Both the position numbers and the translations under genes were made by a program. 38,820 bases of DNA from Pseudomonas phage LPPA33, in sequence record OR188720.1; one strand, given 5' to 3'. Below are positions 24,563 to 28,291 of this stretch, piece after piece. The stretch's first letter is position 1. Each line of letters starts with the position of its first letter. The notes under the pieces were generated by a model. The model was not told the origin of the DNA. It ran no database searches and was given only the letters and a program-made list of their open reading frames with translations.

Positions 24563-24987
24563 TGCGTCCCTCCCTGCTGCTCGCTCAGCAGGGCGCCTAC
24601 TTCAGCCGCCAGGACTTTCCCGCTCGGGTGTGCCGCTGCGAAATCGACAAGGCGCTGCAACAGCCCCTCGCTGACCGTCTTGCCGTTGAGGCGCGCCAGT
24701 TCGTCGAGGCAGGCGTTCCAAGACTCGGCCTTATCCATCGCCATAGCGAAGTAAGCCGGGCTGTTCAGGTGCTTCGCCTGGTCAGGCAGCGGCTTCCGCT
24801 CAGGAACAACCACCACCCTTGCGCGCAGGGCTGCCAGTTCTTCCATCGCCTTGATGGCGACGCGCTGCTGGCTGTCTCGCTCATCCCTGAGCGCCTGGGC
24901 CTCTGCGGCGAGGGCGTCGTAGTCCGCCTCCCGAACGCACCGAATGTTCCGTGCCTCGTGGCACCAGAAACTCTTCACCTCACTCAT
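24559..24987 (-). CDS. Hypothetical early protein.
   Basis: 142 aa, in the translationally coupled series of the leftward operon. Confidence 0.4.
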   Translation of the reverse strand: MSEVKSFWCHEARNIRCVREADYDALAAEAQALRDERDSQQRVAIKAMEELAALRARVVVVPERKPLPDQAKHLNSPAYFAMAMDKAESWNACLDELARLNGKTVSEGLLQRLVDFAAAHPSGKVLAAEVGALLSEQQGGTQ

Positions 24988-26386
24988 GACCTACCTCCTT
25001 GCCGGCCGCAGCCGCGCGGTCCAGGCGCTGGATCTCGGCCAGGATCAGGGCTCCGGCTTTCACAAGCATCCGGCGTGGCTCGCTGTGCTTGAGCCATTCC
25101 GGTGGCCAGGGCCAGAACTCGCGCCAGTTGCCAGGATTGATGCCGCCGGCCCAGAGCGCGTAGCAGGCGGCCGCATCTGCCAGTTCGCCGCCGTTGTGCT
25201 TGTCGTCGTGCTCCGGCGTCCATCCTTCGGCGATGATCTGCCGGCGGCGCTCGGCCTGGACGTCGAGCCAGGCCTGCGGCACTTCCTTGCCGGGCGCGGC
25301 GGCGAGCACGGTGCGCAGTTCTCGGAGCAGAGCTTTTCCGGTAGCGCCGCGCTGTGCGAGAAATTCACTCAGGCGCCCTATGAACTCCTCCGGCACGCTG
25401 TGCTGAGCCTGGGCTACAGGGGCGGCACAGGAATCCAGCAGTCGCTGCACAAAAAGGTCAAACTCTTCGGCACTGAACAGGTAGCCGTCTCCGTCTTCTG
25501 CCGGCTGCCCTTCCTCAAACGCCATTTGGTGAATTTCGTCAGGCCCAGGCACGTCCACCAGGTCCTGCTTCTCCAGCTCCGCCAGCTTCGCCTCAAGCTC
25601 CGCGACCCTGGCCAGGGCGGCGTCGCGCTCTTGCTCAACGCGATTGAACATTTCTGCCCAACGGGCAACGCTAGCGGCATGCTGCGCGACGGTCATCAGT
25701 TCATCGTTTGCATTGAGCGGACCGCAATGATCGAGGACGACAGGATTCGAATGCACGACGCGAGCCACCACCTCCGGCCGCTCCGCCTCTGCCTTTTCGG
25801 CCGGCGCCAGGGCGGGTTTCCAAGCACGGGCAGCCTTCCACTCATTCACAAGCCGTTCTCGCTCGTCATCGCCGACGCCTGCCATTCTGAGAACGGCCAT
25901 GGCGATATCTGCGTGCCCGCTTCCATCGGAACTGGTTATCTGCGCAAGGTTCTTGCAGGCGTAAATCAGAGCCTCGGAAACAGGGGAGGGTTGCGCCAGG
26001 GCGGCGCGGGCTTGCCACGCGGCCCAGCAGCGTTGCGTCAAGGGGTCATCGTAGACGAACTGACCGAAGCAGGCGGCTTCGAGATAGCGCTCGTCGGCGA
26101 AGGTTTCGCCATCCAACTGAGGCGGGAGGTCAAAGGTGTGCATCCACGCCTCGAACTCCTCGCGCTCATCCCCGCCTGCCTGCTCTACCGCAGGATGTGC
26201 CGGACAGGGATGGCGGAGGGAGCCGCCTCCGGAAGGGCAGGTGCAGGTGGCGTCGGGGCTCGCTCCTTGTAGCCCCTCGGCCGGGCTCAATGAGGATTTT
26301 TTCTGAGAGCCGGCCCGGATGTTCTCATCCGTAACCGTGGCGCTGGTAGAGCGGATCTGGTCCATCTGAATTTTCGAGGTGGTCAT
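24980..26386 (-). CDS. Large early protein of unknown function, with a central coiled-coil and a conserved-looking C-terminal domain.
   Basis: 468 aa. SD is GGAGAAAAATCCC before the ATG. The N-terminus is Cys/His-rich, the middle has ERDAALARVAELEAKLAELEKQ, and the C-terminus has ...EGWTPEHDDKHNGGELADAAACYALWA...WPWPPEWL. The last is possibly the phage DUF550/dNTP-pyrophosphohydrolase-like domain; this is from memory and unverified. Confidence 0.45.
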   Translation of the reverse strand: MTTSKIQMDQIRSTSATVTDENIRAGSQKKSSLSPAEGLQGASPDATCTCPSGGGSLRHPCPAHPAVEQAGGDEREEFEAWMHTFDLPPQLDGETFADERYLEAACFGQFVYDDPLTQRCWAAWQARAALAQPSPVSEALIYACKNLAQITSSDGSGHADIAMAVLRMAGVGDDERERLVNEWKAARAWKPALAPAEKAEAERPEVVARVVHSNPVVLDHCGPLNANDELMTVAQHAASVARWAEMFNRVEQERDAALARVAELEAKLAELEKQDLVDVPGPDEIHQMAFEEGQPAEDGDGYLFSAEEFDLFVQRLLDSCAAPVAQAQHSVPEEFIGRLSEFLAQRGATGKALLRELRTVLAAAPGKEVPQAWLDVQAERRRQIIAEGWTPEHDDKHNGGELADAAACYALWAGGINPGNWREFWPWPPEWLKHSEPRRMLVKAGALILAEIQRLDRAAAAGKEVGHE

Positions 26387-26592
26387 GGGATTTTTCTCCA
26401 GGCCTCGGTATTTCCGAGGTCAGAAACGGTGATCAGTCGGCGCCGGCGCTCGATGTTTTCGAGTTGAATGACCTCCCAAAGGCTGTCGATGACGACCCAG
26501 TGAATTCCTTTTGGTAGGTGGAGGTAGCGGGCTGGCGCGGGGGAGCACAGGGCGTTTATGCGGCGGACTGCGGGGCTTTCATCGAATGACAT
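26383..26592 (-). CDS. Hypothetical small protein.
   Basis: 69 aa. Its stop overlaps the downstream ATG (ATGA). Confidence 0.3.
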   Translation of the reverse strand: MSFDESPAVRRINALCSPAPARYLHLPKGIHWVVIDSLWEVIQLENIERRRRLITVSDLGNTEAWRKIP

Positions 26593-26804
26593 GGCTGGCA
26601 GGCTCCATACGGTGGCGCTGCGTAGGTGTGCAAACCAGTTGCGTCCTGGTCTGCGTCGTTTGCGATCTCGTTGAGCTGGCGTGCGAGCTGGCGCAGTTGA
26701 GAGGAGGAGAGCAGGGCGCCGAGGCGTGGGAGGCCGTTGACCTCGGCCAGGCGCTGGCCATCCTCGCCGTCCAGGAACAGCGCGGTCAGGTTGAGGGGTT
26801 CCAT
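26556..26804 (-). CDS. Hypothetical small protein.
   Basis: 82 aa. SD GAGGAA lies immediately after the stop of the MTase-like ORF. Confidence 0.35.
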   Translation of the reverse strand: MEPLNLTALFLDGEDGQRLAEVNGLPRLGALLSSSQLRQLARQLNEIANDADQDATGLHTYAAPPYGACQPCHSMKAPQSAA

Positions 26805-26815
26805 GGGATTCCTCG

Positions 26816-27424
26816 CTATGAGGTAGCGTCGAGGTATGCGGCTATGAACTGCGTCGCCGCTTCAGCATTGAGGGCGTTTCCGATGGCATGCAGAGCACCC
26901 ATTCGACCGGAATAGCCATGGTCCATGCTGCGAACGATGGGCTGAGGCCAACGATCTCCGGGCTGGAGCGGAGAGTCTGCGATAGCGCGCAGATCCTCTT
27001 CGCCACGCCATCTCCGCGGTCCAGCCTGGCAAGGACTTCTGCGCGACTGCTGTCCTTGTGCTCCCTCGCCGAGATGCTTGGCAGCAAAGTAGACCCGCTT
27101 CCTGAGGATCGGCTCCCCGCATGAGGCAGCTGCAAAATGTATCGCCCCAGCGGCGTATCCAGCCTCTTCAAGGTCACCCTGGACGAGATCAAACCAGCCA
27201 TGGACAAGCGCTTCAGGAGACTGCTCGCCAAACAACTCTGGAGGGCGCCGCTCTCTGATGAGATGGCTCCATGACGGCCAGAGGTGTCGTGGATCAGCAA
27301 ACCCAAGTCTCTTGCCTGCCTTGGAGTAAGGTTGGCAAGGACAGGAACCGGTCCAAACAGGTCGATCATCTGGCCAGCCGGCGCGGCGAAGGGAGAGCGA
27401 CCAGACACCGATTCCTGCGAAGTA
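26816..27424 (-). pseudogene. Compact or degenerate C5-cytosine DNA methyltransferase-like ORF. It is in the same frame as, and directly downstream of, the ParB-like gene, separated by a single TAG, and has no start codon of its own.
   Basis: Frame translation starting at the codon after the TAG gives YFAGIGVWSLSLRRAGW (motif I-like, FxGxG), then GSCPCQPYSKAGKRLGFADPR (motif IV PCQ). Further on are LIRERRPPELFGEQ (the ENV-region position with the Glu retained), GEPILRKRVYFAA (motif VIII-like, QxRxR) and RMGALHAIGNALNAEAATQFIAAYL (motif X, GN). Motifs II and III and a full TRD are missing. GC3 is about 56%, against about 80% for the ParB-like part. The first in-frame ATG/GTG/TTG is the TTG at 27235, downstream of motifs I and IV. 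Confidence 0.4.
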
Positions 27425-28291
27425 CTATTCACCGAGGGCGTCATCGGCCCTCGCGACCAGTTCAATCAATCGCTCGATGTGGGATGCCCTGGTGGTGAGG
27501 GTGATCGCTTCCGGCCCCTCTGCCAGGCCGGCGCGAAGGGCTGTCGGGAACGCCGTGACGATCTCCCGATTGAGCTTCAGCAACTCTTCGAGAATGGCGC
27601 GCGGCACGACTGGCTCAGCTACCGCCTTGTGGGTTACTTTGGTTCCGCCCGCTGCAATGACCTTCGCGAGCTTCTGGCCCAGCACCTGGCCGGCCTTCTC
27701 GCCGTGCTTCCTGACGACCTTCGCCGCGGTCGTCGCTGCGACTGCGCCGGAGCTGATCAACTGCTGCACATCGGTATTCGCGTTGCCCACGACCAGTACC
27801 TGATCGACGTGCTGCCGGGTTTTCCCCATCTTCTGGGCGATCTGTTCGACGGTCCATCCGAACGCAATGAGCCGTTTGTAGCCGTGTGCGAGCTCCAGAG
27901 GGGAGAGCTTGCGCCCCTCTTGGGAAGTGATCACGCGGAGCACGCGCTCAGCGTCGTTACCGCCGAACGCAACGATGGGCACCCAAAACTCGCCGTTCGG
28001 GTCGCGTGGCAACCGGCCCTCGGCGTCGAGCTTGAGGTAGGCGCGCCGGCGGCGGTGCCCGTCGACAACCCACATGCCGCCGTCTTCGCGCGGCCTCACT
28101 TCAAGGGCCGGAACGATGCCGCCCTGGTGCAGGTAGTCGGCCAGATCCGCGATGCTCTGTTCGAGGTCTTCGCCCTCGGCGCGGAGGTTGAAACCGGGCT
28201 CTTCGTGAAGGTCTTCGAGGCGAGCCTTCATCGCATCCGCGCGCTTCAGGTCGCCGTCCTTGATCATCTGCTTGAACGATTTGGCCGCCAT
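27425..28291 (-). CDS. ParB-like nuclease domain (ParB/Srx) protein with an internal HTH.
   Basis: 288 aa from ATG 28291, with SD GGAGG. WVVDGHRRRRAYL is the ParB N-terminal signature. The HTH-like segment is TVEQIAQKMGKTRQHVDQ. It ends at TAG 27425-27427, and the next 200 codons in the same frame are MTase-like. Confidence 0.55.
   Translation of the reverse strand: MAAKSFKQMIKDGDLKRADAMKARLEDLHEEPGFNLRAEGEDLEQSIADLADYLHQGGIVPALEVRPREDGGMWVVDGHRRRRAYLKLDAEGRLPRDPNGEFWVPIVAFGGNDAERVLRVITSQEGRKLSPLELAHGYKRLIAFGWTVEQIAQKMGKTRQHVDQVLVVGNANTDVQQLISSGAVAATTAAKVVRKHGEKAGQVLGQKLAKVIAAGGTKVTHKAVAEPVVPRAILEELLKLNREIVTAFPTALRAGLAEGPEAITLTTRASHIERLIELVARADDALGE

Follow-up and report, generated by a model that had tools for sequence, protein, structure and literature searches.

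A truncated C5-cytosine methyltransferase gene beside a ParB-like gene in Pseudomonas phage LPPA33, and the overlapping reading frames of its family

Described systems and the locus of phage LPPA33

This report concerns a locus of Pseudomonas phage LPPA33 (sequence record OR188720.1) in which a ParB-like gene is followed, beyond a single TAG, by a frame resembling a compact C5-cytosine methyltransferase (MTase); the whole stretch of 38,820 nucleotides that was analysed is referred to as the window. M.EcoHK31I, a heterodimer from E. coli, consists of an alpha chain with motifs I-VIII, a target-recognition domain and motif X, and of a beta chain that provides motif IX; the whole of beta is encoded inside alpha in a different frame, internal Met codons can act as its starts, and both chains are needed for activity (PMC2836561, PMC3404938). 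M.AquI is a C5 enzyme split in its variable region into two polypeptides (PMC3404938). This split is end to end, with motifs I-VIII in alpha and motifs IX-X in beta, and neither chain is nested in another frame. A nested two-frame layout of a C5 MTase is so far documented only for M.EcoHK31I. On the ParB side, fusions of ParB domains to methyltransferases occur in phages and plasmids as single open reading frames (ORFs), typically of N6/N4 enzymes (PF01555-type). Like these fusions, the window has a ParB-like domain that adjoins a methyltransferase on one strand; unlike them, it has a conserved stop at the end of ParB, next to which a deletion would have brought a truncated C5 enzyme.

A reading of the window made from the sequence only (hereafter the sequence-only reading) had described a ParB-like ORF at 27425..28291 on the minus strand that ends in TAG and whose frame continues into an MTase-like stretch, and both observations were borne out by the sequence and by profile searches. 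The locus is very probably a recent deletion scar composed of a normal ParB gene, a dead MTase remnant (frame A) and an intact ORF in the +1 frame (frame B), and belongs to a family that codes in two frames. Its features are the following.

27425..28291, minus strand: complete, stand-alone ParB-like gene of 288 aa, with its TAG stop at 27427-27425 (PF17762, phrog_1033, MD8 gp48)
27422..27423, no strand: junction of the ParB and MTase modules, from recombination or deletion, placed by homology breakpoints
26816..27424, minus strand: frame A, 5'-truncated compact C5-cytosine MTase of 202 codons plus stop, lacking codons 1-54 and a start (PF00145, P0001)
26842..27444, minus strand: frame B, an intact 200-aa ORF that overlaps frame A in its +1 frame and takes its ATG from the 3' end of ParB (ORF scan, phrog_1008)
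27448..27452, minus strand: GAGGG, putative Shine-Dalgarno sequence that lies within the coding part of ParB, 3 nt ahead of the ATG at 27444-27442

The ParB-like gene matches PF17762 (HTH_ParB, E=3e-10) and, over residues 2-258, phrog_1033 (E=3e-84), while its match to ParB_N is weak and under the cut-off (E=0.029). It has the length and stop position of gp48 of phage MD8, a 'ParB-like partition protein', at 95.7% nucleotide identity, and the phrog_1033 proteins of MD8, Riah, phi2 and LESphi3 share length and stop with it at 88-96% nucleotide identity. The window gene is an ordinary phrog_1033 member that differs from these copies only in its downstream neighbour. In MD8 and Riah ParB is a stand-alone protein of 288 aa with unrelated genes next to it. 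The context of the stop reads GAA TAG TAC in the window (27420-27430), GAA TAG TAG, a tandem stop, in MD8, and GAA CAG TAG, with one extra Gln, in Riah (sites at ~3000-3006 of L001 and ~3000-3003 of L002 among the compared loci); in the window the second stop of ParB is replaced by a hybrid codon TAC at the junction. The sequence-only reading had considered a ParB-MTase fusion inactivated by a nonsense mutation and had set the comparison of this TAG with homologues as its point of refutation. The comparison revealed that ParB ends here in both MD8 and Riah, followed by unrelated genes, and that homology breaks directly past the stop, at 27423/27422; the proposal is not supported. The TAG at 27427-27425 is the normal ParB stop, and ParB translation ends there.

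Nucleotide homology to the ParB genes of MD8 and Riah ends at 27423, and homology to the MTase genes of Riah and of loci L010, L012 and L013 begins at 27422, with zero shared bases, and the join has no repeat. Compared with Riah, the window lacks about 4.5 kb between the ParB and MTase genes. Both flanks are syntenic with one phage backbone (MD8, Riah), in the same order and orientation, and a simple internal deletion therefore suffices to explain the arrangement. Deletion or illegitimate recombination would have fused the end of ParB (the TAG plus two bases) to codon 55 of the MTase gene. Since the flanks belong to the same backbone and no repeat is found at the join, we infer that the event was a true deletion and not an assembly artefact.

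Frame A opens with the codon after the TAG (TAC, 27424-27422) and ends at a TAG at 26818-26816; the same-frame open stretch stands as previously described, except that it counts 202 sense codons and not 203. Its proposed likeness to C5 MTases is supported by matches to PF00145 (E=2e-13; 50.9 bits, the cut-off being 22; positions 65-165 of the 324 in the profile) and to phrog_363, 'DNA methyltransferase' (E=2e-41), and by ordered motifs, located in frame A as listed.

27421-27407, minus strand: FAGIG (motif I)
27340-27332, minus strand: PCQ (catalytic motif IV)
27229-27221, minus strand: GEQ (family variant of ENV, motif VI)
27103-27080, minus strand: RKRVYFAA (motif VIII)
26881-26873, minus strand: GNA (motif X)

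GEQ, RKRVYFAA and GNA stand in canonical order and are conserved subfamily-wide. The motif variants had been taken for degeneration; the same residues are conserved in the subfamily of 250-255-aa proteins, and decay is not what they record. As had been observed, no start codon of frame A lies upstream of the catalytic Cys or of motif I, the first one after the TAG being a TTG at 27235, past PCQ. The best intact relative is P0001, a 255-aa P. aeruginosa 'DNA cytosine methyltransferase' with 146 member sequences, and frame A is 97% identical to its residues 55-254. Ahead of FAGIG, P0001 begins with MKLTTTAYYNEIDPYAAQWLRNLIAAGHIAPGDVDERSIEDVHPDDLKHYTQCHF; about 50-65 residues precede FAGIG in all the intact relatives examined (Riah, Haboob, XAP3, LASTA, SI7, BcepC6B and N15 gp58).

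The lost residues 1-54 of P0001 (AYYNEIDP...DVDERSIEDV...) carry the NEID and DV motifs, and this 54-residue segment was not found anywhere in the window. The sequence-only reading was correct that motifs II and III are missing here; they lie in the lost N-terminus. An AlphaFold model of P0001 (predicted local distance difference test score, pLDDT, 82; predicted template modelling score, pTM, 0.74) places residues 1-55 in confident strands and a helix of a Rossmann-type core, and its fold matches M.HhaI, M.HaeIII and DNMT2 with probability 1.0. Frames A and B of the window are both undamaged relative to intact relatives, indicating that the truncation is recent; frame A is a recent 5'-truncated pseudogene. 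As the missing 54 residues form core strands of the modelled fold, frame A would be dead as an MTase with or without read-through, and the window copy is almost certainly inactive as a methyltransferase, presumably with no residual activity. The earlier suggestion of a catalytically dead pseudo-MTase is upheld as regards inactivity, and not as regards the low GC content at third codon positions (GC3) and the motif variants, which are not signs of decay. The GC3 contrast itself, estimated at about 56% against 80%, was measured as 0.57 for the MTase frame and 0.80 for ParB, with 0.69 in the competing frame; a flat GC3 is consistent with coding in two frames.

Frame A aligns over its whole remaining length with the compact phage C5 MTases of phrog_363 (N15 gp58, BcepC6B gp33, P0001), with which it has PCQ, GEQ, motif VIII and GNA in common. 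In contrast to them it lacks the first 54 residues and a start codon, and is a remnant rather than a functional member. In the N-terminus of the family (P0001 residues 1-85; Riah locus L003, 2817-3764(-)) the order of elements is a motif-II-like AYYNEIDP, a motif-III-like DV, a motif-I-like FFAGIG and then PCQ, and the alignment of TIGR00675 to the family begins at profile position 24. This order suggests that the AdoMet (S-adenosylmethionine)-binding elements of the compact family may be permuted or otherwise non-canonical in arrangement. The Riah locus (L003 2817-3764(-)) holds an intact 315-codon family MTase ORF together with a frame-B ORF on a strand where no gene is annotated.

The competing frame at 26842..27465, singled out earlier as worth a real test, stays open over 207 codons, from a TTG at 27465 onward, and corresponds to a +1 frame that is under selection family-wide. 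Within it, frame B matches phrog_1008, likewise labelled 'DNA methyltransferase' (E=8e-11), and from the junction on, after its first 9 residues, it is near-identical to the frame-B translations of L010, L012 and L013. Both the native ATG of frame B and the GGAG embedded ahead of it belong to the part upstream of the junction that is lost in the window, where the 3' end of ParB (…GAGGGCCGATGACG…) supplies a substitute ATG at 27444-27442. Frame B of the window might be translated, coupled to the termination of ParB; as an orphan with no catalytic partner it is probably functionless. In phage PMG1, the gene annotated 'DNA methyltransferase, Mte8-like' is frame B, and the MTase frame of that locus (L004 2480-3330(-)) is interrupted near its N-terminus. 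Also, the P. aeruginosa database proteins P0012, P0059 and P0064 are hybrids that switch between frames A and B. These hybrids and the PMG1 break suggest that the gene is often affected by frameshift mutations or sequencing errors.

Selection on two reading frames across the family

The +1 frame is open and conserved in all eight known family members that were translated, with GSTLYKLTWK, RLRASxxRTS, a repeated GWPTPxAxDxKG and LNPxxSRWLMGLPxEW as common motifs. In each of 80 viral loci it forms an open run of 198-369 codons, against 5-24 stops in the +2 frame. Over all the members covered (L003, L005-L009, L012-L091 and L092-L096), a +1 ORF of 200-370 codons stays open without exception. Depletion of stops was assessed in 78 sequences by comparing the observed number in each region with that expected from synonymous-codon shuffling, with the following result for the +1 frame.

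N-terminal part: 153 stops observed, 110 expected
14 codons ahead of FFAG: 6 observed, 27 expected
Catalytic region: 0 observed, 136 expected
Middle region: 0 observed, 64 expected
C-terminal region: 5 observed, 61 expected

Stops in the +2 frame occur as expected in every region of the same sequences. In the reciprocal comparison, with shuffling of frame-B synonymous codons, frame A is free of stops in the middle region, against an expectation of 160.

Substitutions were scored as the mismatch rate at each frame-A codon position (1/2/3), in 294 pairs, and as the fraction of differing codons that is synonymous in each frame (A/B).

N-terminus: mismatch.10/.09/.41; synonymous fraction.76/.04
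Catalytic region: mismatch.13/.07/.24; synonymous fraction.56/.22
Middle region: mismatch.30/.22/.20; synonymous fraction.13/.33
C-terminal region: mismatch.21/.14/.22; synonymous fraction.32/.34
Tail: mismatch.18/.20/.33; synonymous fraction.46/.12

In the middle region the mismatch peak falls on frame-A position 1, which is frame-B position 3. By this pattern frame A dominates the ends of the gene and frame B its middle, and both are constrained near the C-terminus. Selection acts on both frames, and both ORFs stay open across the catalytic and middle regions.

An ATG for frame B is found 14 codons before FFAG in 66 of the 78 sequences, and 46 of these 66 have GGAG 6-15 nt upstream of it. 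The GGAG is built from the rare Arg codon AGG followed by an AGY Ser codon, as in L019 (gatgaaAGGAGtatcgaagATG). At this site, about 11-15 nt upstream of the ATG (L012-L091), AGG is used in 32/66 cases, compared with 159/1850 (8.6%) elsewhere (p=3e-16). The conserved ATG and the GGAG written with a rare codon argue for separate initiation of frame B rather than frameshifting.

The +1 ORF also occurs in N15 gp58, VLCpiS13e, ST13-OXA48phi12.5, RcWata gp22 and gp71 of the mycobacteriophage OwlsT2W. The latter (L095 991-1704(+)) is a 237-aa actinophage C5 MTase with a canonical FSGIGG N-terminus and a +1 frame open for about 210 codons, which holds WRTPVARDYKG and PNPTWLAWLMGFPVEW. To judge by this sequence, the two-frame layout may be found well outside the family of proteobacterial phages.

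Frame-B-type proteins are plentiful in databases as 'hypothetical proteins' that have no Pfam domain. One search returned 6,897 matches and a further one 18,112 representatives at E≤1e-3 and 7,730 at E≤1e-30; at 50% identity they amount to at least 7,730 clusters, with N15 gp58 and at least one mycobacteriophage enzyme among the members. In the one case checked, an MTase frame was found beneath a frame-B-type database protein. None of the GenBank records inspected has both frames annotated, and databases split the two between phrog_363 (frame A) and phrog_1008 (frame B). A literature search on overlapping genes in phage C5 MTases, 'Mte8' and N15 gp58 recovered no description of the second frame of this family. 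A two-subunit methyltransferase of Stx phages, considered as a precedent, proved unrelated, being an adenine/rRNA enzyme encoded by separate genes.

Possible role of frame B and competing explanations

M.EcoHK31I and the compact family are alike in having, within a C5 MTase gene, a second ORF on the same strand with a separate start. In layout, frame B, which lies inside frame A with its own ATG and Shine-Dalgarno sequence and holds a segment that we read as motif-IX-like, resembles the beta chain of M.EcoHK31I. Unlike beta, which has 176 aa against 309 aa for alpha, it amounts to about 80-95% of frame A (200-370 codons) and holds a variable repeat region for which frame A has no folded domain. 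The window copy is moreover truncated. Frame A would give the catalytic core, from motif IV through motif VIII together with motif X, and frame B would give a separately initiated protein with WPTP-type repeats and the motif-IX-like LNPxxSRWLMGLPxEW. By analogy, frame B would act as a beta-like partner that supplies motif IX and probably variable recognition repeats. The AlphaFold model of P0001 in frame A is confident only at residues 1-175 and 236-255 and low between them, where frame B dominates. That the compact phage and prophage C5 MTases, a very large family, could be obligate two-chain enzymes with a beta-type subunit in the +1 frame is a proposal for and against which we see the balance as about even.

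Several observations speak against this account of the locus and of its family. Frame B alone models poorly (pLDDT 56), with the exception of a helix and hairpin at residues 66-112, and has no match in Pfam (E up to 10), in NCBIfam or among PDB sequences. LNPxxSRWLMGLPxEW, which is conserved in frame B and has no profile, PDB or Pfam match, was read as motif-IX-like by eye, and the proposed role of frame B as a recognition subunit draws on this motif reading of ours and on analogy. The sequences used in the selection tests share ancestry, so that p-values overstate their independence. As to the junction, its 22- and 24-mers were found in none of the viral, genome or metagenome contigs searched, and exact-protein look-up gave no record of the window ParB (two starts), of frame B (two starts) or of the small gene downstream. 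The junction was seen in no second genome and may be an assembly artefact. In addition, the join is in exact phase with ParB, directly past its stop. This in-phase join and the usable ATG and GAGG of frame B could be chance, or could reflect selection for some product; with odds of one in three, the agreement in phase of ParB and the MTase is most likely accidental.

If the junction were a chimera of assembly or sequencing, for example of two related prophages, the real genome would have an intact MTase gene and the intervening genes. The failure to find the junction or the proteins around it elsewhere in public data would agree with this, and so would the genome sizes, 41-45 kb in related phages against 38.8 kb here. 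However, both sides lie on the same backbone, ordered and oriented as in MD8 and Riah, and an internal deletion explains all of these observations; chimeras usually arise in shared repeats, and no shared sequence is present at the join. A sequencing error of a single base, as suggested earlier, fails as an explanation because changing the TAG restores nothing, 54 MTase codons being absent from the whole window. A chimeric origin of the junction is accordingly rated as quite improbable. A real ParB-MTase fusion gene, inactivated by a nonsense mutation or expressed at a low level by programmed amber read-through, has in its favour that the two frames are in phase with one stop between them, that such fusions exist, although usually with N6/N4 enzymes, and that phages VLCpiS13e and KpV2811 have a ParB-like gene immediately upstream of a family MTase. 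Against it, the ParB homologues stop at the same position, MD8 even with a tandem TAG TAG, and the homology breakpoints coincide with the stop; every intact family member is a gene of its own whose N-terminal segment, essential and absent from the window copy, is present, and no fusion homologue was found among the best 120 matches to frame A (147-351 aa). Regulated amber read-through, also raised by the sequence-only reading, is not supported: a search of the window found no tRNA genes and hence no suppressor tRNA, and a read-through product would lack core strands of the fold. A fusion gene in either form is regarded as extremely unlikely. In Klebsiella phage VLCpiS13e (L094 85-1820(+)) the end of the ParB-like gene coincides with the start of the family MTase and both are intact, indicating that ParB beside a family MTase arises naturally in N15-like phages without fusion.

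The alternation of the more strongly selected frame along the gene, from A to B to A, would also be expected if a single MTase polypeptide were made by two programmed frameshifts, from A to B after motif VIII and back to A before GNA, with frame B as an internal segment. The resulting order of catalytic core, WPTP repeats, LNP..LMGLP.EW and GNA resembles a canonical C5 enzyme, and confidence in the AlphaFold model of frame A is limited to the parts that this frame dominates. Such a mechanism, however, needs neither frame B to be open in the catalytic region (0 stops against 136) nor frame A in the middle (0 against 160), and it does not sit well with the C-terminal constraint on both frames, with the conserved ATG of frame B and its rare-codon GGAG, or with M.EcoHK31I, documented as two separately initiated chains; it is held to be very unlikely. 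Frame B could instead be a real overlapping gene unrelated to methylation, such as an overprinted accessory or anti-defence protein, in which case the window may express a useful protein. Overprinted proteins are typically disordered, as frame B is largely predicted to be (pLDDT 56); no curated family or solved structure matches it, and in the window it is intact after the deletion, with a substitute ATG and GAGG. Yet frame B accompanies the MTase frame in every locus examined, including one in which only frame B is annotated, its C-terminal segment can be read as resembling motif IX, the motif supplied in trans by the beta chain of M.EcoHK31I, and the truncation seems too recent for the retention of frame B to imply selection. 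This explanation is considered unlikely, if less so than the others.

Setting of the locus and its meaning

The window belongs to a temperate P. aeruginosa siphophage with terminase, portal, tape measure, integrase and CI-like repressor genes, whose relatives are phages MD8, Riah, phi2 and LESphi3. The ParB/MTase locus is situated in the early accessory region, between integrase and repressor. One further gene follows the MTase frame.

26556..26804, minus strand: small downstream gene, 82 aa, phrog_6604 (E=3e-36), follower of the MTase module in related phages

The earlier observation that this gene has its Shine-Dalgarno sequence at the end of the MTase ORF holds, GAGGA being located 5 nt before its ATG, just past the stop of the MTase frame. 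A phrog_6604 gene comes after the MTase in Riah and L012, and also occurs in MD8, phi2 and LESphi3. Further downstream in the same operon, an ORF of 468 aa (24980-26386(-)) matches only PHROGs of unknown function (phrog_3956, phrog_11504). It is overlapped on the opposite strand by an ORF of 442 codons (24944..26272), probably a chance open frame in GC-rich DNA.

For the window, the result is mainly a correction: in place of a read-through fusion there is a freshly truncated MTase beside a normal ParB, to be annotated as a pseudogene and not as a new architecture. As a feature of the window the locus is ordinary, and the part of wider interest is the family-wide coding in two frames. What the compact family adds is a very large number of new members to a kind already known from M.EcoHK31I, rather than another kind. 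It is distinguished by an overlap on one strand that is long (200-370 codons) and deeply conserved, and in which rare codons write a ribosome binding site for one frame into the other. If frame B is indeed the recognition subunit, an explanation would be at hand for thousands of 'hypothetical proteins', gene callers would be systematically overlooking half of a phage methyltransferase that is common, and frame A cloned alone would be expected to yield an inactive or non-specific enzyme. In the window, the deletion would then have orphaned a beta-type ORF and given it a new start, and the compact family would constitute a large natural data set on two proteins that share one sequence.

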